From Mayamaea pseudoterrestris (taxonomy: Eukaryota), in NCBI GenBank assembly GCA_027923505.1, contig BROI01000003.1:1116001-1180000 (forward strand): DNA of 64,000 bases, in the 5' to 3' direction. Position numbers and translations under genes: made by a program. The notes under the pieces are model-generated. The model had not been told where the DNA came from. It searched no databases and worked only from the letters and a program-made list of their open reading frames with translations. Below are positions 16,817 through 56,801 of the stretch, piece by piece; the stretch's first letter is position 1, and each line of letters begins with the position of its first letter.

Positions 16817-17078
16817 TGTTCGCAAGAGACTCTTCGTACTGTTCGCAAGAGACTGCGGATGGGTAGCTATCCGTCTATTGCCTACAAAAGCGTCACGCGT
16901 ACTGTTCGCAAGATACAGTGGCCGGGTGGCTATGTGACATAAGATGTCGCAATGGGTTTTGTTCGCAAGAGACTGCGGATGGGTAGCTATCCGTCTATTG
17001 CCTACAAAAGCGTCACGCGTACTGTTCGCAAGATACAGTGGCCGGGTAGCTATGTGACATAATATGTCGCAATGGGTT
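16817..17078. repeat. near-perfect 120-bp tandem duplication (16841-16960, 16961-17078) with recurrent (CT)GTTCGCAAGA motif
   Basis: Two copies differ at only a few bases; the GTTCGCAAGA core occurs five times (~16818, 16841, 16904, 16961, 17024). Confidence 0.9.
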
Positions 17079-30764: not shown

Positions 30765-33466
30765 TCATCTGTTCCCACCCTTACGGGGACATGCCTTATC
30801 GTATGCTTCAAAGAAATTGGTCTTGAACAAGGTGACTTCATCATCTGTCTTCAGTTTATTTTTAGACTTTAAAGATGTGATACAGAGAGACTTTACCGGC
30901 TCCCGGAGGCATTTTTTGCCGCCTCGCCCACACGGGCATCCACTTTTCCGAGAGAGCTGTCGATAGCAGGCATTTGCCAGGCGCTTGACCGCGCGGACAC
31001 GTTTTTTGGACGACTTCGGTCGTCGAGACGGGCCATTACTTGGTTGAATGGTCGCAGTTCTGACACTCCCGGCTGGCTGCCTACTCGGCCCACGGCTTAG
31101 AGAGTCAGGCTGTCGACTTGGTAATGCACTGGGGGCTACATTAGGTTTGGCGCTTGAGACAGCGGCGCTAGGCGTAACACTCGGCCAGGCACTGAGAGCA
31201 TTTTCACGTGGCTGGGCGCTTGGTATCTGGCTGGGCGGCCAACTTGGCAAAGCACTCGGAATTATGACCATAGCAACACTGGGAATAGCATTGGGAATCG
31301 CGCTTGGTAAAACGCTTGAGGCCAGGCTGGGTTGCGAGCTTGGCAGGAGACTAGGCGGTGTAGCTGGAGCAGCATTTGGATGGGTACTTGGGAGCAGGCT
31401 TGGCAGCACGCTTGGGGCCAGGCTGGATTGCAAACTTGGCATGGTGCTAGGCGGTGTAGCTGGAGCAGCATTGGGATGGGTACTTGGGAGCTGGCTTGGC
31501 AGCACGCTTGGGGCCAGGCTGGGTTGCAAGCTTGGCGTGGTGCTAGGCGGAGTAGCTGAAGCAGCATTGGGATGGGTACTTGGGAGCAGGCTTGGCAGCG
31601 CGCTTGGGGCTGGGCTGGGATGCAAGCTTGGCATGGTGCTGGGCGGAGTAGCTGGAGCAGCATTGGGATGGGTACTTGGGAGCAGGCTTGGCAGCGCGCT
31701 TGGGGCCAGGCTGGGATGCAAGCTTGGCGTGGCACTTGGCGGTGTGGCTGGAGCTGTGCTGGGTTGAATTATTGGGAGCAAGCTTGGCAGCGCGCTTGGG
31801 GCCAGGCTGGGATGCAAGCTTGGCGTGGCACTTGGCGGTGTGGCTGGAGCTGTGCTGGGTTGGGTACTTGGGCGCAAACTTGGCAGTGCGCTTGGAACCC
31901 CACTTGGTGAAACACTGGGACTTAAACTTGGCCGAGCACTTGGGGCTAGGCTGGGGTGCAAACTTGGCATGAAACTGGGTGGTGTGGCGGGGGCAGCGCT
32001 GGGTTCGGTGCTTGGAAATAAACTTGACAGAGCGCTTGGAACACCACTTGGCAAGAAGCTTGGAGGCACACTTGGCAGGTTGCTCGGGGCCATGCTAGGT
32101 TGCTTACTTGGTAAAGCACTGGGATAGGCGCTTGGAGGCAAACTTGGCGGAGCGCTGGGTGCAATCACTGGCTGTCTTGTCGGGGCCAGACTGTGTCCCA
32201 GGCTTGGTACGGCACTGGGCGTTCGCGTACTGCTTGGCGGAGTAACGGTAGGATTACTTGAAGGTAGCTTGCTAGGGGACGTGCTCGGCATACTGCTAGG
32301 CCTTCGCCTTGGGGTAGCACTCGGAATCCTTGACGGATGCTTTGATGGCATCCGACTTGGAGAAGATGATGGCTGAGCAGATGGCTGGCAATCAAATTCA
32401 ACAATAAAACCTCGTTTGATAGTCGCACAATCCCTGCCAGTCCAAATGCCGTCTGATTTGCGCTGGTCGACGCAATCGTCAACGAGGTTGGTGGGCTTTG
32501 CACCGCCATTCCAATTTTTGTAGACGTACTTTTCACCGTCGACCCATTCAAAATTGTTATTAACTCTCATGTCATTCAAACCAATCCACGAACCGAAACT
32601 ATCTGAAGCAATTTCAGCTTGAAATGCACTTCGCACGGCATTTTGCTCGGCTGCACTTTCCAGCGAGATCAAGTGACCAATTTCGTTGCAGTTAGTCATC
32701 TAGACAAAAGTCGATACCAGAAAGTAAGCAATCCGTTAGTAAATCAACGGCAGCCATGCTTGGTTCGCGCAATTACCGTACCTGTGCGCTTGCAACGACA
32801 GCTTCTGCCCACAAGATTCCATATGTATCGTAATTATAGTACTGGTATATATGTCCATTGACAAGGGCTGTGGCAGTTGGTGCAGGGATTGCACAATCGT
32901 ACTCCACCAAGATACCAACGTACTCTTCATTGCACTTGATATCGTTCCATTTGCCGCTTTTAATAGCTTGAATCTCGACACAGTCTTCAATCGGCGCGTT
33001 CTTTCCGCTTGGTTCACCTTGGCTCCATAGCTGATCCGCGGCGAGGGTGGATAGTGCTTGGCCATTACTCCATTGGTAGCTACCTTCAGTTTTGATGTCA
33101 TTTAAACCAATCCAAGCGTACCTGTCCTTGACAATTCCAGAGCTTACAATTGCGTCAAATTCCTGTTTGGTTGTCAAATCAGCAAGGTGCCCTGATACGC
33201 CACCACACTGCGAGTAATGCGCCAACATGATTAGTACAGTGAAACAACGAGTCGCAACTCGTTTCGTTTCATTCCTTACGTGTACCTACCGCCTTTGAAT
33301 TCGCCGCAAATGCTGCAGCAGCCGGTTGGCCGTCCTCTTGATTATATTTGTCCGTATCAATGAACCTGTAAATATGGCGGGCATAGGTGAATGTGTTCAC
33401 TTGCGTTTGGCAGAAACCGGGCGCGGCGAGCAGCACGATGAGGAAGCTTGCGAGCATTGTCTTCAT
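30765..33466 (-). CDS. secreted protein with two C-type lectin domains, mucin-like PS-repeat stalk and basic Cys-rich C-terminal domain; 3 exons
   Basis: Signal peptide at 33466; introns 33289-33208 and 32781-32700. CTLD motifs WIGLND…WSQGEPS…EDC…WND.KC and WIGLND…WVDG…DDC…W…DC. Confidence 0.85.
31100..32390 (-). repeat. hierarchical coding repeat: 12-bp PSxx units organised into 96-bp (32-aa) higher-order units
   Basis: PSLAPSALPSLLPSTHPNAAPATPPSTMPSLH repeats at 96-bp spacing (e.g. 31381, 31477, 31573). Confidence 0.9.
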
Positions 33467-34045
33467 CAAACTTGACGGCTATTCGATAGTCACTTGCGTT
33501 CGAAGAAGGATTTTGAATGAAGCAAAACACTCTCGCTTGTGATCGACGCGCTGCTCACTGGATAGTTGCAGCTTCACGATATATTTTTGTCAATGTATCA
33601 ATTCCCAATGACGAATAAGTAAGCTTTCAAGAAGCATCTGCAACATACTGGGCATTTACCTGTCATTTTCTGACGATTTCAGACACGGTGACGCTTGCCA
33701 GCACGCGTGAAAGGAAATTGGCTCGGTAGTATGACGCCACTTGATGAGTAGTCCACCTTGTCCAAGACGTTTTCCGCCTCCCGCTTCGACCATAATGTGC
33801 CACGCGATGACTCACTGGAACAATGAATGGCGTTGTAAGCCTTTCTGTGGCGTCAGCAATCATGACGAGTCACACTTACTCCGGGCGGAAGGAGCAAGCA
33901 ACATCCCGGCAATGATCCAAGCGGTGCTCCATGTCACATGATTTAGAAAGGTATAGCAAACTGTACATTATATCCTGCTATTTCAAGTTAACATGTAAGA
34001 GACTGCTTGGATTACTGGTTGTATGTAAATTTCATTGCAGGTGGT

Positions 34046-34582
34046 TGTTAGAACAAGCTTGCACAGCTGTGAGCTTGGTCGGGTTGTCGCAGCGGAATGA
34101 CTATCACTGACGCTACTCAATGAATCCGTTTGCGGGTGCCGTTCGGATCAAAGGAGGACTGGCCTGCTACAATGACTCTACTTGACGGTTGATAGGCTGT
34201 ATTCCTTGCAGACCAACCGTTTCCAGTCAGCTTGTCCGTCTCCGGCCAATTATGCGGCAATTGCAACAGTCTGGTTCGTGGCCGATGGATCGGTAGGGCC
34301 ACTGGGTACTTGCCTGTTGATATCCACGTTCCCGCTTCTTATTCAACTGGGAGTAATCCTAGATATATAGCTGTAGGCTTTATAGGCTTATTGTTTGGTA
34401 TAACAATAGGTCTATGGCATGCTTTTAGTTTAAAGGGTACAAAGAAAGATGAGCGAATCGGTGATCGGGTGCATCGGTCCCGAGGTCCAGCCAGTGGTGC
34501 CCGTTGACTGACGCGGCAAAGCCCTCATAACCGAATCACCAAAGGGTAGCTAAATTAGTGTGCTCCCAGACATGTTCCAACA
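34046..34582 (-). repeat. 3' LTR of Copia-1
   Basis: Matches 42369-42905; adjacent to PPT GGGGAGGG (34583-34590, minus strand). Confidence 0.95.
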
Positions 34583-34695
34583 CCCTCCCCGGCTTTAAGC
34601 ATCATGAAGCCAAGAAAGGGCAGGTCTGGACATAGACTCCGTGCTGACGAACGAGATAACGTTGTGCGACAGGGTCGTCGTGAGCTACGGGAGCC

Positions 34696-37600
34696 TTACT
34701 TGAGGACGGTTGGCGGGCCGAAGTGTCCCATGGCACGTCGCGCATGGCGGGCATGAAGGACCCATCCGAGTGCTTTAGTGAGTTGATCGGCTGGATTGAT
34801 AACGCCGGGGATATGCGCGAGCTCGACAATGCGGCGGGCGCGCCATTCCTGGATTGCGAAGTACTGAACATCGATATGCCGAGAGCGAACGGTAGGACAA
34901 TTGCTATTGACCATGGCGATCGTGGCTTGATTATCCTCATAGAGCAGAGTAGGGCCAGGCGGCGGGAAACCAAGATCCTGTAGAACGGAGCGTAAGTACT
35001 TGGCGGTTTTGGCAGCGTGAACGGCAGCGATAAACTCGGCTTCTGTGGAAGACGTTGCAACAGTAGCTTGGAGTTTGGACTTGTAGGCAATAGCGCCGCC
35101 GGCGAAGTTGAACGAGTAACCAGTAACCGAGCGGCGGGTGGTGGACTCGGTTGCATGGGCGGCGTCGACAAAACCGACTAGTTCGAGGAGCCTCGAAGTA
35201 GGAAACGCGGGCAACAGGACTGAAACGGGATCGGCAGGTGGAACAGTGTGTGCCACAGCAGGAAGGTCAGCGCGAGGTGCAGGCCGCCAGTACATGATTC
35301 CCCAAGTTTTGGTGCCACGCAGATAGCGGCAGACGTTCTTCAATGCCGTAAAGTGTTCGCTCGCAGGATGACGGGTGAACCGGCTGAGGAAGGTAACAGC
35401 GTACCCAATGTCAGGACGGCATATGACGTAGGCGTAGGTAAGCTCGCCAAGCAACTGGCGGTAGGCAAATTTCGCGGTGTCCTCAATGAGCTTTGCGGCG
35501 GGCGTTCCTTCGGGCGGACCTGTCAACTTGTCTAATTTGGCGGCAACGTCCGCGGTTAACGGTACTGTCATAGTGCTGGACGAGGGTTCGGACCAACCAT
35601 GACTGTGGAATATCCTATCCAGGTAGGACTCGCAATGGAGTTTAATGAAGTCACGCGTTTGCATCACGTCCACACCGTTATAGCGGGTGACAATGCCGTA
35701 CCCAGGAATTTCGTCGCCAATCCCCTTGCTTTCCGTGGTGACGAATTCGTTGATGGCGCCAATCAGGATATCAGCGGTCTCGGAATGCTCTGATGCAACA
35801 GCAAAATCATCCACTTGGCGGCATATAATCACATCTTCGCCGTTGGTAGTACCGCGATATAGATTGCGCTTGTGGGTCGTCGATTTGTAGCCGAGTTTCG
35901 TAAGGATACCGACAATCATTCGTTCCCATAGGCGACCAGCCTCAGGGTGGCCTTGGAAAGCCTTGAGCACGGGAACCACGTGAGTCGCAGGATCAATATC
36001 TCGCCCATGGCGTTTGCGAAACCAGGAGCGATATGCGTCGTCTATGCGCAAGTAGCATTGCTCCGAAGGGCCTGGCGACTGTTGATACGCATTGGTGGTG
36101 TCCGCGATAGTGACCACGTAATTCTTGGCGGCTGCAAGGGCAAAGAAGAGGCGTTGGCATGGTAATTCAATACAGGATGCGTACGTTTCCGCAAATTGAC
36201 GCAGCCATGGGGCAGAGCGCTTGGATCCGTCGATGCATGAACGCGCTTTTCGCCGGCCGTCTTCCTTCACCATAAAGGACCAAACCACGCGTAGGACATT
36301 CGGGCGCTTCCCGTCTACTGGCATCGGAGTCGCCATCGGGAGGCCGAGGGTGCTGTCTTTGTAGTGTTGATCTAACTGCTTGTCGTGAGCCGCATCCCAT
36401 TCAGACCAGTTGGACAATCGTCGAAGGCTGGAGCGATTCAGTTTAGGCAGTCGCCGTTCCTCGTCGGTCATAGTGGTAGATTGGAGACGATGAAGTGGGC
36501 GGAGGCGAGGCGCTTGTATTCTGTTGATTACGCGGTGCGTAGCGAGTAGTACTTCGTGAAGCTCACTATCTGCGGGAGCGCGCGCGAAGGCTGTCAGTGT
36601 AGGTTGATATGCCTGAGCGCTGTCCCCCTCCCCATCAACAGCAATAAGAGCGCTGATGCGGCGAATGTCCGCGAGGCGGAGATGGAGAGGCGTCGTTCAA
36701 AGAGAATGATCGGTAGACGCAATAGGGGCGAGGTCGAGAGTTACTTCGGAATGGAGAGCCGTGGCTGCAAGCGCAGCAATCTGGACGGCGATGTCGTCGG
36801 CAGTATACACAGGAGTGCCGTTGATGGCAGCAACGTAGGAGCCAACAAATTTCTTGCGAAAAGCAGGAAAGCTACGAAAGTGGGCGGTAGGCAGCGAGTG
36901 AAACTCCGACACGTAGGGCCGAGACAAGTACTCGCATTGTGCAAAGTCACACGCAATGGCGCCGTCGCGCAAGGCCATTGATATGGCGGTGGTATGGTAG
37001 AACATGTGGGGAGAAACGTCGAGGTCGAGAAGGGATTGCTCTAAGTCGGTAGGGGCCAGAGGGTGATTATCTGCCTGATCCTCGGCGTCATCGCGGATTG
37101 TATCGAGCCGTTGCGCATTGGGAGGCTTTAAGTGAAACGGCAAATCATTGAAAGACTCGTCAAACGAGACATGCTGGCAAGTCTTGATTTGCCCATTGGC
37201 AAGGTCCAGGTATAGGGCATTCTTGGTTGTCCGCGCGTATCCCAGGAAAACACCAGTCTTCGCTTCGTTGAGGGTTTTGGCGGAACGGCCATGACTAGGG
37301 AGGGCATACAGACGGCAGCCAAACGTCTTAAAATTGGACATGTCGGGTTGATGACCGACGCACAGTTCGAACGGCGTCTTGTGGTCATCCCCACGAGGCA
37401 TAGTGGCATTGAAGACGCGGAGGAAATGATGTAGAGCATAGGGCCAGTACTTTGGTTCAAGCCCGGCACCTATCAAGGAAGAGCGGACGCCGGCGGCGAT
37501 CGTGCGATGAGGACGTTCAACTGGGCCGTTCTGGTGCGACGAGTCGGGTGCGGTAGTCTCAACCGAGTAGCCGGCGGAGCCAAACAAGTCGACGAGAGCG

Positions 37601-39597
37601 GCGCAGCGGCCGAGTTCGCCGCCAAGGTCGAACCGAACGTAGCGATCGACGCCTTCGCCAGGATTGTGAGCAGCGAGGAATTCAGAAAGATACGCCAAGG
37701 GAGGCGCTTTGGTGCGAAAAGTACGAGCAAAAAGAGCTCCAGAGAAATGGTCTTCCACTAGGCAGTAGCACGTTTCACCGTTGACGCCAGTAAGATCGCG
37801 AACGCGCTCAGAGTTGGTGGACTTTTGTACCATGAAACCGAAATCAACCGAGAGCCCTTGAAATGGGACTGTGGCGCGTCGCGAATCACCATGACCGCGG
37901 GCGGCACGAGTGAGCTTCGCCTGTTGGCAGGTAGGACAGTTGTCCAGACTGTTGGTAAGCGGTAGACGCGGGACGCCGCGTACATGTTGATGAAGCTGGG
38001 ACATGCGCCGGTGATTGAGGTGAGCGCAGCGCTGGTGCCAGAGGACAGCTGTTTGGCGATGGGTCAAGTGATGGACGTGGTACTGGATCGGGTCGCCAAC
38101 AAGAGCGTGTAGACTGACGGGTGCAGGTGGCGCATCAATGACCGTGCAGAAGCCTTTGAACGCCGGGCAAGGACTCGTCCCACAGAGACATGGGCGCGCG
38201 CCAGAGACTTGATGGACGCAGAAATCCTCCAAGCGCGGTAGAGGTTGGAGATGCTCAAGAGCAGACGGACGCGTCCAGGGGCCGGTGTAGGTGAGGCCGC
38301 CGACAAGATCAAGCGTCAAAGAGATATCGGCAGTAGCACGGCGGAGGCAGGAAGTAAACTTGATGGTCGAGGACGATATGTCGTAGGACGTTACAGTGCT
38401 ATGGCCGCTGCAGTGGAAGTGCTTGGAGATGTGATGAGGCGATAAAATGGTGGCGGTGACTCCAGGCGTATGGTAGACCGGAATAAACTCGTGCGTAGGG
38501 CCAATTGTGGAATGACGCCAGGGTCGCTCTGTGGGTAGACGAGGCACCTTTGCGAAACCGATTCCGATGGCCTTATGTCGGGAGCCGTCTGCGACGACGA
38601 GGGTAGGACCATCAACGGTGCGGTAATTCCAGAGCAGATCTTTAGCCGGAGTGGTGGACAGTGATGCTCCAGCGTCCATGTGGCCGCGATCGGCCAGGCT
38701 GTCGCCATGAGTGGCGCGATGGATTTCATACACTTCATTTACCGTGCACTCGGGCATGCGGCGGCAGATGCGAGTGAACTCGTGTAGGCCGCGGTCCGCA
38801 GGCGAATGAGTAGCGGTGATGGACTCCAGGATGGCGTCGTCAGGAATGTTTTCCGCTTCCGAGGCAAGGAGAACTTGGTTCAGATGGTAGACAACATCAT
38901 CGGGATTGCCGTGGCCGTCGTCGGGATCCTCGTTCGGGGCGTGCGCCGCAAAGGCGGAACAATTTTCGGCATCTTGGGCATAGTCGACCATGGGGCAATC
39001 ATCGTCTGTGTAGCCTTCGTCGTCCATAATGCAGTCCAGGCCAATTGTTGTCAAGTCGAGGATCTCCATCTCGCATATCACTTGCTTGATCCGGGTCGCA
39101 TCGTTATGACGGGTCGCATCGTTATGACGCATAGGTGCGCGCTCGGCAGCCGCACATTGCGGGGCTGCACCGTCGCCGATGATGCCGGGAGGCGGTATAG
39201 GTGCGCAGGCGGCATTTGCCTCGGGCGTCGCGAACGGAACGGGCGACGGGGTAGGCGAAGAGCCAAAAGGGACCGGCTCATCATCAAGAAGGTCGGAAAG
39301 GGAATCTGGCGAATCCCGGAGGTCAATGGCGTCATCGATAGCGTCACTGGGTGGGGCCCTCCCCGAATCCAAGCCGAGGGAGGAAGAAGAAAGGGGTGGA
39401 GGCGCACAAACAGGCAGGGACGCCGGAGGTGGTTCAAAGGGTAGAGGATGGGACAAAAAATCCCCTTCGGAGGGTAGACCGGGACAGACGAGAGGCAAAC
39501 CAGGATCTCGTCCGGATTCTGTCCCGACAACGGCGGTAATATCAAAAACCCGTTCACATGCTGAGGGATGGTCGGCATGCCGGGCTACCGAAAATCC
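34696..39597 (-). CDS. pol: Copia-1 pol (protease, GAG-pre-integrase, integrase, PDZ-like, RT, RNase H) with one in-frame TGA at 36697-36699
   Basis: HMDAGAS (protease), LWHQRCAH, VDFGF…RFDLGGE…QNGPVER (DDE integrase), RQVDD (RT), FVDAAHA…SSTEAEF…EDN…NPADQLTK (RNase H). ORFs 39762-36697 and 36471-34696 are in the same frame. Confidence 0.92.
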
Positions 39598-42324
39598 GTC
39601 GAGGCGGGAGCGGAAGCGGTAGGCGGGCGCGGTTGAGGCCAAAGGAGAGCATCCAACTTGCGGGTTAAGGTAGAGATAGACCCGGGAGAGCAGTCGCGGC
39701 AAAGGCGCACGACCAGAGGGCAATTGGCGGAGGCAAGGTGATCCTCGAGACACCAACCGCAAGGGGAGAGCTGGCGGTCGCGATCAAGAGCATGAACAGT
39801 GTACTCACCAGTGGCTTCCAGGGCAGCGATGAGGGCAGCCGAATCAAGTGGAGGAGAGGTGTCACGAAGTCGTCGGCCGGAAGCGAACTTGATGAGCGTT
39901 GTAGACGCGGCCCGATCGAGTCGCGGGCGGAGGACTGGGAGGGAGCACAGGGCGAACAGAGGCCCGAGGAGTCGCAAACAGAGCGTCGCTAGTGTGAGAC
40001 TCACCGACGATATCACTCATGGTGTTGGTGAGGGCGGTAGATTGAAACTTCGATGGGAGGCAGCGGTCCCAAGGCGCGAAGCGAAGACAATTGAGGAGGT
40101 GCAGTCCATAGTGCTGATGATAGAAAGGGAGTAGGCCCGCGACGAACCCAGCCACGAAACCGCGGTCGGATAGAATGGTAAGGCCGAGAAGCTTCTTGTT
40201 AGCATAGCTTATCCACGCGTTCAGGTACGCGCTGACGGATTGTGTCGGGAGCTGGCGAGGAGCCTCCAGGAGTTCAGGGCGTTCGCGTAGACGACTGTTG
40301 GCCTCGACACCGAGCAGATACAGAGCATGATAGCCATTGGTGGCAGTCTCGACGCAACTGCGAAGCCGGACTGGGGTCTTATCGTTGTTCAGCCCAGTCT
40401 TGGGATTCTTGAGATACATGAGTAGGTGCGTTTGCCAAATGGTCTCGGTGTAGCCGTGCTGGTGGATATTCAAGTACTTGCCCCAAGCGCCAAGGTCATC
40501 GTCGACGATCATGGTATGAAGCGGAGGGATGAAGAAGCCGTGAGCCTGCCCAAAAAGGGCGAGGTGATTATACCAGAGTATAAGGGACGCCTCGACGGCG
40601 GCAGGCGTAGCGGGCGTAGGCGGTGGGAAGTAGACGGGCATGGAGCTGTTCTTTGCAAATTTGGCGAGCATCTCAGCAGACGCCAACCGACTGTGATCGG
40701 TAAGAGCGGCCATGGCCATGCGGCGATCCATAAGGGGAATGTGATAAGGAATCGGGTAGATGGGGATCGGATCCTTGGACGCAGACGCGGAGCAGAAAGC
40801 GAGCCAGTGCAGAAAGCGTTGCGTTTCTTCATCCAGGGTGAGATCCTCCGGGGACGGATACGTAATGTATTCCCAACTGGGGGATACATGGCGCTGCGGA
40901 GGATTGCGCTGACGCTCCTCGAGTACTTCTTCACGGGCGTAGGAGCGATGGACGTTGTCGGTACCGTACTGCGTGAGCGGGTCCCATAGGATCTGTCGCC
41001 CAGACGGGGCGGGTGATTCGTAGCGCTGGGTGTGCAACACCGGAGTTTGCCGGTTGCCGCGGCCAAGAAGGAACTTTGGTTCCTCAGTTGGAGAAGATCG
41101 CGACGGCGAGGACTGATAGAACGGAGAGGCAGAGGTGGCCACTTGCAGTGCTTTAAGGATGTCGCCGGACGGAAAGAGAAACTGGAACACACGATCCCCG
41201 TCTTGACCCGCGCGCGCGAGGGTACTGCACTGCGAAAGCTTCTTGAGAAGGCGAGTAGCATTAAATACGCCATACTGGTTCTTGGTCTCACTGTCAGCAA
41301 ACGCCAATGGTAGCGTTTTGGACGAGGCAAGCGAGTCGAAAATCGACAGAAGGCGATTCGCTTCGTCGGTGCCATCGATGTCGAGGAGGCCGATCAAAGC
41401 GACCAGCTGGTTGCGGATGCTGGGATAGAGATGGTTGGTGCGCCAATCGCGGCGGAACTGCCCCGATGCATCAAGTAAATCGTCTAGCCCGATTGTTTCG
41501 TAGGTGAGCGTGCGGAGCTGACTAGGATCGATGGCTGTATCGAAGAGGCGGAACCCGATCTCAGTGTTTGTCAAGTCAAAGACGGTTGATCGCTCGCTGC
41601 TCCCGGCGTCGCTGTCGGTGTAACCGTCGTCGCCGGGTTCGAGGGCAGAGTAGGTGCGGTCCGCACTGGCGGCAGTAGCACCGGCGGCGGCCTTGTTGAG
41701 AGCAAGCTGCTCGGCCATGGCTTGATCGTCCAGGGCGGCTTGAGCGGCAGCGGAGAGTTTCTTGGACCGTCTCTTGATTGCTTTCTTCGACGCCTTCGGT
41801 GGAATAGTGCCAGGAGTAGGTGTGATAGCTGCTGGAACGATCGTTGTCGTGGTGGGTGTTGCTGCGGTGGCAGGACTCGGACCAGCGGATGGCTGAGGCG
41901 GCGCGGGTTTAGGAGTGGCATCCACGGCCGCCGGCTGTTTCTTCGCCGCCTTGTTGCGTCCTGTCACTTGGATGAAAGCTTCGTCCGAGTCGGCAAGGAT
42001 AAAGGCTCGTATCGTCTCGAGCGTATTCCTGGTCTCGACAGCCGCTGCCTTGGCAGATTCCTTGGAGCTCACGGCGGCCGCATACTCCGTGGCTTTTCCG
42101 GCGAGCCGAGCTTGGAACGGATCAAACGTTTCAGCGAGCTTAGCGCGCATGGCTGCATCCGTTTCGAGATCCATGAACTGTTGGTACGACGCTGCCCTCT
42201 CGTGCAGGGCGTCTAGATCGGCCTTGATGGACGCTGTCGTTGCGATGGCGACCTCGGCTTTCTCTTCCGCTTCTCCTGCTCGCGCTAGGAGAGCCAAGTA
42301 CTTCGGATCATCCGGCGCACTCAT
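39585..42324 (-). CDS. gag: Copia-1 gag, with a 1-bp frameshift near 39870 before the zinc knuckle
   Basis: Long ORF from MSAPDD continues in the +1 frame through CGWCLEDHLASANC (CCHC-like knuckle) and ends TDFR*. Confidence 0.8.
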
Positions 42325-42355
42325 GGTAATGTTGGACACAGTGGTGTTGTAATTT

Positions 42356-42368
42356 GGGCTCGGTAACC
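42356..42368 (-). promoter_or_regulatory. primer-binding site of Copia-1 (internal-tRNAiMet type)
   Basis: GGTTACCGAGCCC abuts the 5' LTR and resembles GGTTATGRGCCC, the complement of the tRNAiMet anticodon arm used by copia/Ty5-type elements. Confidence 0.7.
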
Positions 42369-42905
42369 TGTTAGAACAAGCTTGCACAGCTGTGAGCTTG
42401 GTCGGGTTGTCGCAGCGGAATGACTATCACTGACGCTACTCAATGAATCCGTTTGCGGGTGCCGTTCGGATCAAAGGAGGACTGGCCTGCTACAATGACT
42501 CTACTTGACGGTTGATAGGCTGTATTCCTTGCAGACCAACCGTTTCCAGTCAGCTTGTCCGTCTCCGGCCAATTATGCGGCAATTGCAACAGTCTGGTTC
42601 GTGGCCGATGGATCGGTAGGGCCACTGGGTACTTGCCTGTTGATATCCACGTTCCCGCTTCTTATTCAACTGGGAGTAATCCTAGATATATAGCTGTAGG
42701 CTTTATAGGCTTATTGTTTGGTATAACAATAGGTCTATGGCATGCTTTTAGTTTAAAGGGTACAAAGAAAGATGAGCGAATCGGTGATCGGGTGCATCGG
42801 TCCCGAGGTCCAGCCAGTGGTGCCCGTTGACTGACGCGGCAAAGCCCTCATAACCGAATCACCAAAGGGTAGCTAAATTAGTGTGCTCCCAGACATGTTC
42901 CAACA
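42369..42905 (-). repeat. 5' LTR of Copia-1
   Basis: 537 bp, matches 34046-34582. Confidence 0.95.
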
Positions 42906-43203
42906 GTGGTACATTTGGGTTGTACAGGCCCTGGCATTAGCTAGATACATACTATTATACATCTGCTACTGTTTTGTTATATGGCTCAATGCACTTGTAA
43001 TTCTCAGCCACCAGTAGTCCGTCGTTCCGCCTCGTAAGGACTGTAGCCAATGTCTCCATGTATTGCGACCCAGTAGCTAAACATGACTGTATTTAGTCGG
43101 CGACTGCGCTTTTCAAATTAAGTCATGCTGCGACAACGGCGACGCTCCATCCATTGCGCGCCGCGGCACCATGACGAAACACGCCGCGTTCGCGACGTAC
43201 CAT

Positions 43204-49952: not shown

Positions 49953-50216
49953 ATCTCCGCACGATGGTTTGATGTTATTATAGCCCAGTCGTCACAAATC
50001 CTCAGGTTGACATAATGGAAAGCTGGCATTTCCCAACCACTGACATTGCAGCGCATGCGACGTGAACCCATAATCATGAATCTTTCAACATTCTTAGTGT
50101 GCCAGTGAAAAGGCAATCGTATGTTGATATAGCATGATATTTGCCTCTGTGATCCACTTTTGCAAGATGACATGAACATCGACTATTGCCTCCATGACCA
50201 AAATAGCTTGCTCTTG

Positions 50217-53200
50217 TTGCAGGATGCGAACGAAAACAGCGAAAATCGGGCAAGTCACACCGAATGTCCGATAGGGTGACACAGCGGCACTCGCGGCTCA
50301 CCACAGCCTCACGATCGCGTGATGCGTGGCAGCGACGGCTTCGAAGCGATTCAACAAGTATATTGCTGAAACTAGTGCGATATAGAGTAGAAACAAGCAG
50401 ACTTACTAAGCTTGAAGAGTTAAGAAAGCGATTTATTCGTCTCTCGTATTGTAGCAACTGCAAGCTTGGATTGGCCATCCAAGGACAGCTACAAGCGAAA
50501 GGTGCAACGATTTGATTTACAAGTTACAAGATTAACACTGTCTTGAGACTCATTGCCTCGGCATAGAGACTTTATCGACGAAGAGTACTATTGATTTACG
50601 AAGTAACGTGGACGCACGTTGGTTCTTGGCCCGGAAAGTTCCGCAGGTGATAGCAAGAACATTGTCACGACGACAACGATGGCGGAAACTCGCGCGCAGA
50701 AAGACGCGGCGTTTGCGCATGTTTACGAAGAGAACGTAGGCGTTTTCCAAGATCCTCAGTTCAAGGAGTTATTCGACGAACTCGGAGTAGAATCGCTTAC
50801 GCAACTGATCGAGATGGAGTACGACGATTTCGCGACGAAGTGGAACGTCACGACGACGACAACGACGACGACTGACGATGGCGACAATGTCACGCAGGAA
50901 ACGAGCGAACACTCGCTAACGAAGATGAAACAACGCACGATCACGAACGCGATCGAATGGTATTTGGCGCAAGAGTCGCCGGACATCAAGACATGGTCGC
51001 AACTGACCACCGAAACGCTGGCGACGTTCGTCACAGCACGAGCGAAGGAACGAGTCCAAGCGCGCAACATTGCGAGCGTGGGCAGCGGAAGCGGAGCGAA
51101 ACCTCCAGCGAAGGAAAGCGAAACGGAATCCAAGAAGGACGAATCCAAGGACTCCACGCTAACGAACGAAGGCAACGAGTCGAAGCCTGACTCGGCCGAC
51201 AAGGTGCCACCGACGAGTGTGGACGTGGACACGAAGCAGTCACCGACATCCGTACTGGACCTCGGCGACGACGAAGACGACGAGAAGTATTCAGACCAAT
51301 TTACGAAGTCTATCAAGTTCTCGGCGAGGGATTGTAAAGAAATGAAGCTGGATTCCTCGTGGAAACAGTGGATTTCCGAGTTGAAAGTCATCGCTACATT
51401 GCATGACTTCCACGAAGTCTTTGACGACGATTATGACCCGAAGGAAAAGGGACCGAAAGAACAGAAGGCGTATGCAAAGAAGAATGTGTTTGTATACAGG
51501 ATCTTTCTCACGCACTGTCGAACTCCGTCTGCATCACTCGCAGTACAGCAGTTCAAGAAGACGATGGACGGACGCGAAGTCTACCAACGATTGCGAACGC
51601 GATACGAAGAAGGCGCTACTGCTCACATCGAGAAGGAACCGCGCGAACGGAACTGCAGGGAATGCGGCTGACCGAGAAGTGGTCACGGCCGACGATCGAA
51701 TTTCTCGCACTGTTCTACAAGAAAGTCATCTGGCTGCTCGAAATGGACGCAGAAGCTCTGACAGGTTTACAACGATACGACATGCTACGCGACGCTTTCT
51801 CCGAGCACACAGGATTCAGCGCATCACTAGCAGGTTTTGACGGAATGATTGCCATCAAGAAACACATGGGGCAACACGACTCGGAAGACAATTTCGCGCA
51901 GTTGTACGCGCACTTAGAAGAGTGCTGCATCAAGTATGACAAGAAACACCCATCGACGACGAAGACTAAGCGCACAATCAATCAAGCGCAGTCTAGTGGA
52001 ACGAAAGGAGGCGGCGGCGGCAATGGCGGCGCGACTCCAAGCGGCTTATCGGCGGAACGATTTGCAGCGATCATGAAGAAACCTCACGCGAGCGTGAAGG
52101 ATGAAGTCTGGTTGGAGATGAAGTTTGATCAGCGAAAGCAGTTGAAGGACAAGCGTGCGACGGCGCCCAAGACACCCGAAAACGGATGGCGACCGCGCAA
52201 CCAACGAGGCACGGCTACGACGCAGACGCAAGTCAACGCGGCGCATCAAGAGCGTCACGCGACGGAATCTGTAGCGAACGATCACGCAAGCGTTCCTGGC
52301 ACGATTAATATTCAGCCCGGCAATAGTGGAATGTCAGTCCAAACGGCTGCACGATCGGTTCTGCAAGCGAACAATGCGAGTACTACAACTCAGCAAGTGA
52401 CAGGATCGTTGACGACTGATAACACCGGACGAGGTACATTCAGCTTCAACATGCATCGTCGTATGCGCGTCAATCGCGCACACTACGAGCGGATCAACGA
52501 AGGCGCGCTCATCGACAGCGGCGCGAACGGAGGCTTATGCGGAGGAGACATGCTCGTCGTTTCGGAAACGAACGCCGAGGTGGATGTGACTGGTATTGAC
52601 GATCATATTGTCCCAGCTCTCAAGATTGGCACTGCAGCTGGACTGGCAAAGACCCTTAGTGGCGAAACCATTCTGCTTCTGTGTCACCAGTATGCTTTAA
52701 AGCGAGACGGACCGACGATTCATTGCCCGAATCAATTGCGCGCAATGGGACATCGCGTCGACGATATTCCGACCATGTTTGGCGGAACGCAACGAATTAC
52801 GACGAACATTGGAGGCTACGTTTTGCCATTGGCAATTCGCGATGGCCTGGTGTACTTGGACGTGACGAAACCCACGTTCGATGATTTGGATAAGTATCCG
52901 ACTGTCATCATGACGTCGGACGTGCCGTCGGGACTCGACTGTTTACGATGTCGAGCACGCGCACGACGATTTCGACGAACGAGATCATGATTATGGATCT
53001 TTCGACGAACGATTCGATGATGACGGTATCACGCACCGCAATCGTCACACGCCGACACGCACTGGCGACGAACTTGACGTACTGATCAATCGGTGCGTGC
53101 GACACGCTCAGTTTTCACGCGTTAATTTGCGGAAGCCAAGAAGCAAGGAACCGGACTATAATGCTCTTCGGCCGTACCTCGGATCGGTCCCGACTGAGCG

Positions 53201-56200
53201 CGTTCAACAGACTTTACGTCACACGGAAGCATGGTATCATCTCAGCGCACACCCGCGATTACCATTTTCGACACCTCACGAAATCACGATTTCCGGCCGC
53301 GAACGTTCAGCGGTTGCGCGAACTATTCGCCACGGACACGATACACTCTGACACGCCAGCTTTGGATGATGGAATTCTAGGGCATGGGGAGCTACTAAGA
53401 TGCAGCTCTTTGTTGGACGAGAAAGTTTTTACACGCGCGGCTACCCGATGAAGTCGGAGAGCGAAATGTCAAACGTTAGAGGATTTTATCCGCGAAGTGG
53501 GCGCTCCTAACGGACTGCTCAGCGACAATGCCAAGTCGGAGACTGGCAAGGCTGTGAGGGATCTCTGTCGGATGTACAATATTCCTCAAGTGACCACAGA
53601 ACCGGGTCATCCAGAACAAAATCCATGCGAACGTCACACGTCGCACATTAAGCCAATGATGGAGAACCTCCAACGAGATTCGGGTTCGCCAGGCCATTGC
53701 TGGGTTTTGCTGATTAAATTCGTAATCATGATACTGAACGTCCTCGCGACGAAATCGCTGGGATGGCGCACGCCAACGGAAGTTGCGTTCGGAAATCTGC
53801 CGGATATTTCGCCTTTGTTACATTTCAAGTGGTGGGAACCGGTCACGTTTGAGGCGCAGGGGAGCTTTCCCTCGGCGGTACGATCTGGCAACGGCCGATT
53901 CGTGGGCATCGCAGAGAATAGCGGTCCGCACATGACTTTTCTCGTTCTGACGGACGACACGCTTCAGGCGATTCCGCGCTCCAACGTGGTCTCGCGCAGC
54001 TACTTGTTACCACGAGAGTTGCCTTCCTTTCCTGAGTCTGGAGGGGAGATTTCTGAAGAAGCTACACGCGCAAGCGAGCGAAATTTTGAAACTCCAGATC
54101 TCGCGACAGGACGCTACCATAGCACGCATGTGACAGAAAGTAGTCACGACAACTACGAAGGAAACGACGACGAAACATTCCGATGGCGAACCACGCCAAC
54201 GTACCAGCGAAGTTCTTCAGAAGGGCTGAGCAAGAATCAGGGAATAAATGCCCTCTGTTCTCTCCAAGCGAACTCATCGGACGCACGTTCGTAAGGGAAC
54301 ACGAAAACGGTCAGAAAATGCGAGCGACTGTATGCGAATATATCGAAGTACGCGATAACGAGCTACTCGAAACGACGAAAGGTTTCCCTAATCCAAATGG
54401 GAGAGGAGCCAGCGAAAGACTTAATAAGTTACAACGAACTGTCGGATTTAATCGAACGACAGATGGAGCGAAGATATACGAAACGATCCGGCGACTCAGT
54501 GGGTATTCACGAAGGTAATCGGACACGAGCTTAATTTGAAACCGAACGATCCGACATACAAAGGAAGTTCAAGTAACGTTCTCGTCGAATGGACTGACGG
54601 AACGACGACGTGGGAGCCTCTCGCGATCATGAAGAAGGACGATCCGATAACGATCGCAGAGTATGGACTCAAGCACGGCTTACTCGACAAGCCAGGATGG
54701 AAGCAGCTGGAGCATTACACTCGGAAGCGAAAGAAGTTTCGACAGATGGTAACAGCGGCGAAACGAAAATCGAAAGCAAACGGCGTACGCTACAAATTCG
54801 GCGTAAGGTTGCCGCGCAATTATAAAGATGCGAAAGCTCTCGACGAGATCAACGGCAACACGCTGTGGACGGATGCGATTCGAACGGAATTAAATCAGAT
54901 AAATGATTACGACACGTTCGCAGATCAAGGAGTCGGTAAGGTTATGCCGGCGCCGTGGAAACGAATAAACGTGCACATGATATTCGATGTCAAGCACGAT
55001 TTGCGACGGAAAGCACGACTCGTTGCAGGAGGACATATGACAGAGCCGCCGAAGGATTCAGTTTACTCGGGCGTTGTGTCATTGCGAAGTCTACGAATGG
55101 TAGCGATGTTAGCGGAACTCAACGGTCTGGAACTGTGGGCAGCTGACGTCGGCAACGCATACTTGGAAGCGAAAACGAAAGAGAAGGTTTATATCGTGGC
55201 AGGTCCGGAGTTCGGGGAGCTCGAGGGTCACACGCTCACGATCGTGAAGGCATTATACGGTCTTCGCACGTCAGGCGCACGCTGGCACGAGCACTTTGCA
55301 GACACGCTCCGCGACATTGGCTTCATGCCGTGTATCGCAGAACCGGACGTGTGGATGCGCGATAAAGGCACGCACTACGAATACGTTTGTGTGTATGTCG
55401 ACGATTTAGCGATAGCGATGAAGAATCCGAAGGAACTAACGGATCTTTTAATTGAGAACTACAACTACAAGTTGAAGGGCGTCGGTCCATTGGCATATCA
55501 TTTGGGCGCAGACGTTTGGCGAGACGACGACGGCGTACTCTGCTTCGGAGCGAAGAAGTACGTCACAAGACTACTAGCGAACTACAAAGAAATGTTCGGC
55601 GAGGAACCGCGACCGCAGACAAGTCCACTACGCGACGGCGATCATCCGGAACTCGACGAAACGAAAGAACTTGACGACGACGGAATTGCGAAGTATCAAT
55701 CGATAATTGGTGCGTTGCAATGGGCAGTAAGTTTATGTCGATTCGACATTCACTGTGCTGTCATGACTATGGGGGAGATTCCGAGCTGCGCCACGAGCGG
55801 GGCACTTGGAACGGTTGAAGCATATTTGCGGATACTTACGAAGATACCCGGATGGAGCGATTCGATTCAACGTTTCGATTCCAACGGACGAGCGATACGC
55901 GACAGTTGACAAGATGGATTGGGATTACAGTGTGTACGGCAAGATCTGCGAAGAGCTTCCGTGGAACATGCCCACGCCGCGCGGCAAGGCGGTGCGAATG
56001 TCAACGTTCGAAGATGCGAACCTGTACCACGATTACACGACGGGACGGGCAGCGATGGGCATGCTACACATGTTGAATGGAACAGTCGTTGATTGGTTTT
56101 CGAAACGCCAAGCGACGGTCGAGACGGCGACGTACGGCTCGGAGTTTGTAGCAGCGAGAGTGAGCACGGAGCAGATCATGGATCTTCGCTTCACGCTACG

Positions 56201-56801
56201 CATGTTGGGAGTTCCGCTCGACGGACCTTCATGGATGTTTGGAGACAACAAGTCGGTAACGCAAAGCAGCAACCTACCGCACTCTAGTCTGACGAAGCGA
56301 CACAATGCACTGGCATTTCACCGTGTACGCGAAGCGATTGCGGCGGGAATTATTAATTTCAACCACATCATGGGAACGACAAACCCGGCGGATGTACTTA
56401 CCAAGTTTCTTCCACGGGCTACGGCAAGCAAGCACTTAAAGAACCTGCTCTTCAAGGAATCTAACTATTAGGTATGACTTGAGGGGAGTTGCAGGATGCG
56501 AACGAAAACAGCGAAAATCGGGCAAGTCACACCGAATGTCCGATAGGGTGACACAGCGGCACTCGCGGCTCACCACAGCCTCACGATCGCGTGATGCGTG
56601 GCAGCGACGGCTTCGAAGCGATTCAACAAGTATATTGCTGAAACTAGTGCGATATAGAGTAGAAACAAGCAGACTTACTAAGCTTGAAGAGTTAAGAAAG
56701 CGATTTATTCGTCTCTCGTATTGTAGCAACTGCAAGCTTGGATTGGCCATCCAAGGACAGCTACAAGCGAAAGGTGCAACGATTTGATTTACAAGTTACA
56801 A
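50217..56801 (+). mobile_element. Copia-2: full-length Ty1/Copia LTR retrotransposon (CoDi-like, different lineage from Copia-1)
   Basis: 313-bp LTRs (50217-50529, 56489-56801) that look identical; flanking duplication CTTG(T); PPT GAGGGGAG at 56481-56488; order gag-PR-IN-RT-RH. Confidence 0.95.
50679..56471 (+). CDS. Copia-2 gag-pol, interrupted by many single-base frameshifts
   Basis: LIDSGANGG (protease), ATDT…SDNAKSE…QNPCER (integrase), VEWTDGTTTWEPL (chromo-like), RKARLVAGGH, ADVGNAYL, KALYGL, YVDDL (RT), EDANLY…ATYGSEF…GDN…NPADVLTK (RNase H). Confidence 0.9.

Follow-up and report, generated by a model that had tools for sequence, protein, structure and literature searches.

How does a retrotransposon express pol when pol lies in a different frame from gag? 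This question is raised by a Copia-type long terminal repeat (LTR) retrotransposon of the diatom Mayamaea pseudoterrestris, contained in a 64,000-nt stretch of contig BROI01000003.1 (GenBank assembly GCA_027923505.1, positions 1,116,001 to 1,180,000 of the forward strand; hereafter the window, numbered from its first letter). The minus strand of the element carries four open stretches: open reading frame (ORF) 1, a 143-codon frame, a 1028-codon frame and a 666-codon frame. Judging from its sequence, the site at the end of the 143-codon frame is best explained as the signal by which a diatom Ty1/Copia-type family, unusual for its long Gag of about 900 residues, recodes from gag into pol. We put the probability at about 0.6 that this family uses a programmed -1 frameshift at G_GAU_UUU, stimulated by a downstream hairpin and perhaps also by the stop codon close to it, to make Gag and a minor Gag-Pol product. 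We infer the slippage and its efficiency, and the mechanism is assigned to the family, not demonstrated for the copy in the window.

Anatomy of the gag-pol junction

The junction is made up of the following features.

39588..39845, minus strand: gag C-terminal part, ending Asp-Phe-Arg, with a Cys-X2-Cys-X3-His-X5-Cys motif
39591..39597, minus strand: slippery heptamer G_GAT_TTT, in phase with gag
39585..39587, minus strand: gag stop codon TAG, 3 nt past the heptamer
39549..39584, minus strand: hairpin with a stem of 4 + 6 bp, a bulge (GAA) and a loop of 13 nt, in the minimum free energy (MFE) fold
36700..39597, minus strand: pol part 1 in the -1 frame, with a linker, a protease-like region and integrase (gag_pre-integrs, SH3_retrovirus; Pol_BBD below the cut-off)

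The minus-strand codons from 39599 to 39585 are ACG GAT TTT CGG TAG, and the sequence across the site reads ...ACG GAT TTT CGG TAG CCCGGCATGC CGACCATCCCTCA GCATGT GAA CGGG.... GGATTTT (39597-39591) is read as G_GAT_TTT in the frame closed by TAG 39587-39585, which is the 143-codon stop-to-stop ORF (40016..39585). The spacer between heptamer and hairpin is CGGTAG, 6 nt in length. In the stem, CCCG (39584-39581) and GCATGC (39580-39575) face GCATGT (39561-39556), the GAA bulge and CGGG (39552-39549). In the MFE fold the stem is extended by A-U and G-U pairs (39586-39585 with 39548-39547), and the hairpin begins 4-6 nt past the heptamer. Across the site the -1 frame reads ...LDGFSVARHAD... and is open over 39783..36697 (1028 codons), where Pfam detected the integrase domains gag_pre-integrs (1.7e-07) and SH3_retrovirus (2.8e-13); a match to Pol_BBD in pol part 1 (0.0086) was under the cut-off.

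A sequence-only reading of this DNA had proposed a slippery GGATTTT in register with the gag-ending frame, a 6-nt spacer with a stem-loop at 39584-39549 and a -1 slip into pol (...GFSVARHAD...). The heptamer was found at 39597-39591 in that register, the proposed stem is that of the MFE fold, and the slip into pol holds at the level of frames. Features of a -1 signal that were tested for and are present at the site include a 0-frame stop 3 nt past the heptamer and an open -1 frame encoding pol. A stable structure, expected 5-9 nt downstream, is present as the hairpin at 4-6 nt (-15.7 to -17.1 kcal/mol), and the umbravirus-type arrangement of GGAUUUU with a 0-frame stop 0 or 3 nt on is present as GGATTTT CGG TAG.

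In the proposed mechanism, ribosomes near the end of gag would pause over G_GAU_UUU while the hairpin, 4-6 nt on, occupied the mRNA entry channel, with the 0-frame UAG one codon ahead of the paused ribosome. Some ribosomes would slip back one base, tRNA-Phe moving from UUU to UUU and tRNA-Asp from GAU to GGA. They would then read ...Thr-Asp-Phe-Ser-Val-Ala-Arg... into pol (protease, integrase, reverse transcriptase and RNase H). The slipped fraction would give a Gag-Pol fusion in a low, fixed ratio, and the remaining ribosomes would end at UAG and give Gag.

The gag stop codon in a homologue

The sole true homologue of gag in the protein collections searched is P0001, a hypothetical protein of 890 residues from M. 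pseudoterrestris. It was aligned with the 143-codon frame and with ORF1.

42324..39862, minus strand: ORF1, the ATG-started main gag part, 820 codons and TGA 39864-39862

With tblastn, P0001 spans ORF1 and then the 143-codon frame, up to its last residue, as one continuous protein. Residues 5-793 are 50% identical to ORF1 (42312-39880), and residues 803-890 are 65% identical to the 143-codon frame (39845-39588; E 2e-31). P0001 and the 143-codon frame both end Asp-Phe-Arg-stop, and the 25 residues before this end are poorly conserved. Both also carry the motif Cys-X2-Cys-X3-His-X5-Cys in place of CX2CX4HX4C. The alignment indicates that a single ORF of about 900 codons encodes Gag in the family and that the stop after Asp-Phe-Arg is ancestral, because the homologue has the same end; pol therefore lies outside a single gag-pol ORF and needs recoding. 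The earlier claim that gag ends at this TAG is upheld by the end of P0001; in this copy the frame in question lacks an ATG and is disconnected from ORF1. A Gag of about 900 residues is several times the size of the usual Copia Gag.

No Pfam family was found for ORF1, the 143-codon frame or P0001. A structure model of P0001 (from a two-row alignment) had a predicted local distance difference test (pLDDT) score of 38.1 and was confident only in an N-terminal coiled coil (residues 1-110, pLDDT 62-86). The protein search found no longer protein matching the 143-codon frame, and among 7999 candidates scored there was no relative of the N-terminal 460 residues of pol. In the representative library the 143-codon frame had two matches, P0001 and the bacterial repeat protein P0002, the latter rejected as spurious. 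Scans of metagenomes gave no relative with ORF1; the gag C-terminus was matched at two loci, of which L001 is a bacterial locus matched by chance in a frame that is not the coding one, and L002 gave the same match figures as L001. No relatives were found in scans of viral and prokaryote genomes.

Folding, heptamer placement and codon usage

The hairpin is the MFE fold of the 51 nt past the heptamer (-17.1 kcal/mol, z -1.78, 11 of 200 shuffles as stable), and its stem is retained in folds of 120-nt and 221-nt contexts. The 45 nt past the heptamer fold at -15.7 kcal/mol, a stability reached by 2.5% of 1549 windows of the element and by 2.6% of 680 GC-matched windows. When the codons of the 65-codon gag/pol overlap were shuffled 20000 times, an in-register slippery heptamer fell in one of the 3 codon positions next to the stop in 0.77% of cases. 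Over the whole element there are 5 in-register slippery heptamers in 2543 codons.

A codon-usage model trained on the clear coding parts of the element favoured the ORF1 frame above about 39975. From 39930 to 39615 the gag C-terminal frame was best and the pol frame scored -0.73 to -0.09 bits per codon; below about 39390 the pol frame was best.

Comparison with known recoding systems

Dianthoviruses use GGAUUUU, the heptamer found here. In a passage of PMC5009743, the shift site of pea enation mosaic virus 2 (PEMV2) is given as G_GAU_UUU_UGG_UAG, and replacing the stop 3 nt on by a sense codon is said to lower frameshifting drastically. In Table 2 of PMC13098196 most umbraviruses have GGAUUUU with a stop 0 or 3 nt further on, and the umbra-like virus SgULV1 has GGGUUUUCGGUAG; G_GAU_UUU is named as a typical -1 motif in the abstract of PMC11050907. 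These passages on PEMV2 and umbraviruses (PMC5009743, PMC13098196) agree with the earlier statement that GGAUUUU is a known viral -1 slippery site. A single spacer base distinguishes the site in the window, G_GAU_UUU_CGG_UAG, from the cassette of PEMV2. Like the umbraviral sites, the site in the window has the heptamer, the register, one NGG codon, UAG and a structure just downstream. It differs from them in its host, a DNA-integrated LTR retrotransposon of a diatom and not a plant RNA virus, and its structure is predicted from simple folds. We regard the resemblance as a functional analogy and make no claim of common descent.

Gao et al. are said to have surveyed gag-pol recoding in 2003. As in retroviral and Ty3/gypsy -1 gag-pol arrangements, pol lies at -1 and overlaps the end of gag, with a slippery heptamer and a downstream structure that would set the ratio of Gag to Gag-Pol; unlike them, the element is Copia-type with integrase before reverse transcriptase, the heptamer is not X_XXY_YYZ, and the gag stop is 3 nt on. 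Among diatom elements, those of the CoDi groups are described in Maumus et al. 2009 (PMC2806351) as having one or no stop or frameshift separating gag and pol. The window element has in common with CoDi Copia elements a diatom host and the order protease, integrase, reverse transcriptase, RNase H (PMC2806351); beside those groups it has a Gag of about 900 residues with the CX2CX3HX5C motif. Plant Copia elements are mostly one ORF, and Sireviruses have +1 arrangements, according to a passage of PMC2829016. The premise of the sequence-only reading, that Copia elements mostly rely on a single ORF or a +1 shift, is supported for plants in that passage. For Drosophila 1731, gag-pol frameshifting is reported in a passage of PMC5009743 that does not state its direction. 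The window element resembles Ty1, Sirevirus and 1731 in being Copia-type with gag and pol in different frames, and its shift would be -1 as against +1 in Ty1 and Sirevirus. No description of a -1 signal in a Copia element was found within the limited literature collection searched.

Structure of the element and its surroundings

The element is complete, 8860 bp in length (34046-42905), with its genes on the minus strand. Its other features are as follows.

42369..42905, minus strand: 5' LTR, 537 bp, TG..CA
34046..34582, minus strand: 3' LTR, 537 bp, adjoined by a purine-rich tract (reverse complement of 34583-34592)
42906..42910, no strand, with a second copy at 34041-34045: target-site duplication GTGGT, read from both flanks
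34696..36696, minus strand: pol part 2, reverse transcriptase (RVT_2) and RNase H, ending at TAA 34698-34696

The two LTRs are direct repeats of the form TGTT...AACA and are 100% identical, which indicates a very recent insertion. The 666-codon frame (36696..34696) matches RVT_2 at 4.9e-14 (52.9 bits, cut-off 31.6). The element is a Ty1/Copia-type LTR retrotransposon because integrase precedes reverse transcriptase, RVT_2 is matched and the target-site duplication is 5 bp.

An ORF encoding a C-type lectin domain (Lectin_C, E 1.2e-14; 32773-33285, minus strand) is found some 760 bp away from the 3' LTR. Two tandem arrays are present in the window, one of 8 copies in a 96-nt register with 60-100% identity (31176-32087) and one of 2 copies of about 120 nt each (16840-17078). 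A second LTR element, Copia-like and unrelated to the first, occupies 50216-56801 on the plus strand. Its LTRs, of 314 bp each, show 100% identity and are probably flanked by a CTTGT duplication; the element matches rve and RVT_2 and has at least four reading-frame changes, one of them in gag near 51650.

Probable defects of this copy, and related sequences in public runs

The coding frames of the copy in the window are interrupted at two places.

39846..39879, minus strand: gag frame break, 34 nt (3n+1) against 9 residues in P0001, including the ORF1 stop TGA
36697..36699, minus strand: in-frame TGA between integrase and reverse transcriptase

At the gag break the tblastn alignment passes from frame -2 to frame -3 between 39880 and 39845. 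ORF1 is in the frame of pol, and four TGA codons lie between the two, at 39864, 39846, 39807 and 39786. Off-frame reading of NNT_GAN is the expected source of the TGA codons of 39864-39784. Each of the five stops inside the ORF1/pol frame is a TGA, so that with TGA as a sense codon the frame would form one ORF; this reading was excluded for 39864-39784, where the homologue fits the other frame at 65% identity. Introns through the GTGAGT sites (40004-39999 and 39808-39803) with CAG acceptors were excluded by the alignment of P0001 through 40032-39880 in the ORF1 frame, and a 28-nt GT..AG stretch across TAG was too short to be an intron. The stretch UCG_UGA_C at the ORF1 stop resembles stop-stimulated +1 shift sites.

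The element was found in five public runs from two studies, none recorded as RNA, and contigs from four of them (X1-X4) were compared. For the relatives, 40 of 566 substitutions and 12 of 26 indels were listed. Every relative contig that covers 39863 has an extra base there (2/2 in X1 and 1/1 in each of X2, X3 and X4); these contigs are relatives at 92-95% and not this copy. In place of TGA 39864-39862 the relatives have extra bases at the UCG_UGA_C stretch. By piece coordinates, one relative lineage has 11 letters more than the window, all within 39838-40242, and another has 20 more and 3 fewer. Both net differences equal 2 modulo 3, which is the shift that joins the two gag frames. On length arithmetic, this fits a continuous gag in the relatives. 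At 39106-39139 the contigs in all four runs turn into unlike sequence on either side of the 34-nt stretch, which sits at a tandem duplication in pol encoding RHNDAT-RHNDAT and is probably also present at another locus.

TGA 36699-36697 is real DNA, because contigs with zero differences from the window cover it in X3 (36264-37192) and X4 (36521-37017). Either a nonsense mutation or a readthrough site may account for it. This copy is probably defective and non-functional. Its frameshift signal is probably idle, because gag goes out of frame by one base 250-290 nt before the site and a premature TGA interrupts pol. The copy looks like a recently inserted defective member of the family, mobilised in trans or damaged in reverse transcription.

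Alternative explanations

Several observations weigh against a programmed -1 shift at this site. In this copy the slippery-site frame has no ATG, and ribosomes that start at the gag ATG end at TGA 39864-39862 and cannot reach the cassette without a frame change at 39879-39846. Pol is interrupted by TGA 36699-36697 (context CTT TGA ACG) in an element with identical LTRs. With these two other frame defects in the copy, the offset at the junction could, from this window alone, be a third copy-specific accident. The evidence for conservation of the site is at the protein level, through the Asp-Phe-Arg-stop common with P0001; P0001 is itself a gene model, and its end gives the stop, not the pol frame, at its locus. 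The hairpin is modest against shuffles of the 51 nt, and folds of the 120-nt and 221-nt contexts do not reach significance (z -1.16 and -0.88). GGAUUUU is a non-canonical heptamer, not of the X_XXY_YYZ type, and Rfam gave 0 matches over the region at E up to 1. Codon usage is ambiguous from 39570 to 39390, where the pol frame and the old gag frame are not separated, and the old gag frame is open again for 168 codons past TAG (39584..39078). The earlier proposal of retrovirus-like control of the gag:pol ratio is partly supported, by the anatomy, the conserved gag stop, the -1 position of pol and the viral cassette, and falls short in this copy through the gag break and the pol TGA.

The site could be a chance look-alike in a decayed copy, with heptamer and hairpin idle, the frame offset a copy-specific indel, and pol reached in the family by other means, such as stop-codon readthrough or one ORF. 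A gag break and a pol nonsense codon are already present, and the neighbouring element at 50216-56801, which has at least four frame changes in spite of its identical LTRs, shows that the assembly contains broken young copies or indel errors. GGATTTT alone is not rare (12 in the 64-kb window against 9.1 expected), and some in-register slippery heptamer was found in the 65-codon gag/pol overlap in 11.7% of 20000 codon shuffles. We nevertheless hold a look-alike to be rather unlikely. The Asp-Phe-Arg stop is kept in a homologue of about 50-65% identity, so gag and pol were not one ORF; the heptamer is within three codons of the stop, the hairpin is among the most stable 2.5% of windows, the cassette is a tested viral one bar one spacer base, and the relatives have no indel in 39438-39841 among the 12 of 26 listed. 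The breaks might also be assembly errors, so that the real gag is continuous and the cassette is used in this very copy, which would be compatible with the programmed shift. In the four runs, no contig across 39863 has the version of the window, the identical LTRs and perfect target duplication are those of a young and possibly active copy, and the neighbouring element likewise has several frame changes. Errors of assembly are unlikely: the contigs at 39863 come from relatives, the local sequence is no homopolymer, and stretches of 300-929 nt elsewhere, TGA 36699-36697 included, match X3 and X4 contigs without differences.

Another route to pol would dispense with slippage at the heptamer, by readthrough of TAG and a later frame change (before 39078), or by a start or separate RNA of its own. 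The 168 open codons past TAG, an in-register CCCTTTG in the old gag frame at about 39441-39435, the ambiguous codon usage and a pol frame whose first Met comes after about 240 open codons would suit such a route. It would require two recoding events and not one, and because the element is GC-rich and often has open runs of 130-294 codons in frames that are not coding, a run of 168 may be chance. One relative has a 3-nt deletion at 39437 within CCCTTTG, the contigs of the four runs, none recorded as RNA, have no splice-like joint near 39500-40100, and the UAG-CCC context is not known to match a readthrough motif. We give this route little credence. Recoding might even occur three times in series, with no interruption being damage: a +1 shift at UCG_UGA_C (39867-39861, antizyme-like) from ORF1 to the gag C-terminus, the umbravirus-like -1 shift at G_GAU_UUU_CGG_UAG into pol, and readthrough of UGA 36699-36697 into reverse transcriptase. 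Such a scheme would give graded amounts of Gag core, full Gag, Gag-protease-integrase and Gag-Pol, and we find it highly improbable because the relatives are without TGA 39864-39862.

Significance of the proposed -1 shift for the family

If the programmed -1 shift is real, a diatom Copia lineage would set the ratio of Gag to Gag-Pol by slippage on a cassette that is near letter-for-letter umbraviral, a case of convergence on G_GAU_UUU_NGG_UAG. Frameshifting by -1 would then join the recoding repertoire of Copia elements, described so far in the literature searched as single-ORF or +1. In the annotation of diatom genomes, gag and pol ORFs of this kind would be joined by a -1 shift and not treated as separate genes. 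The site would add no new kind of mechanism; it would offer a short, testable frameshift signal of an algal eukaryote.

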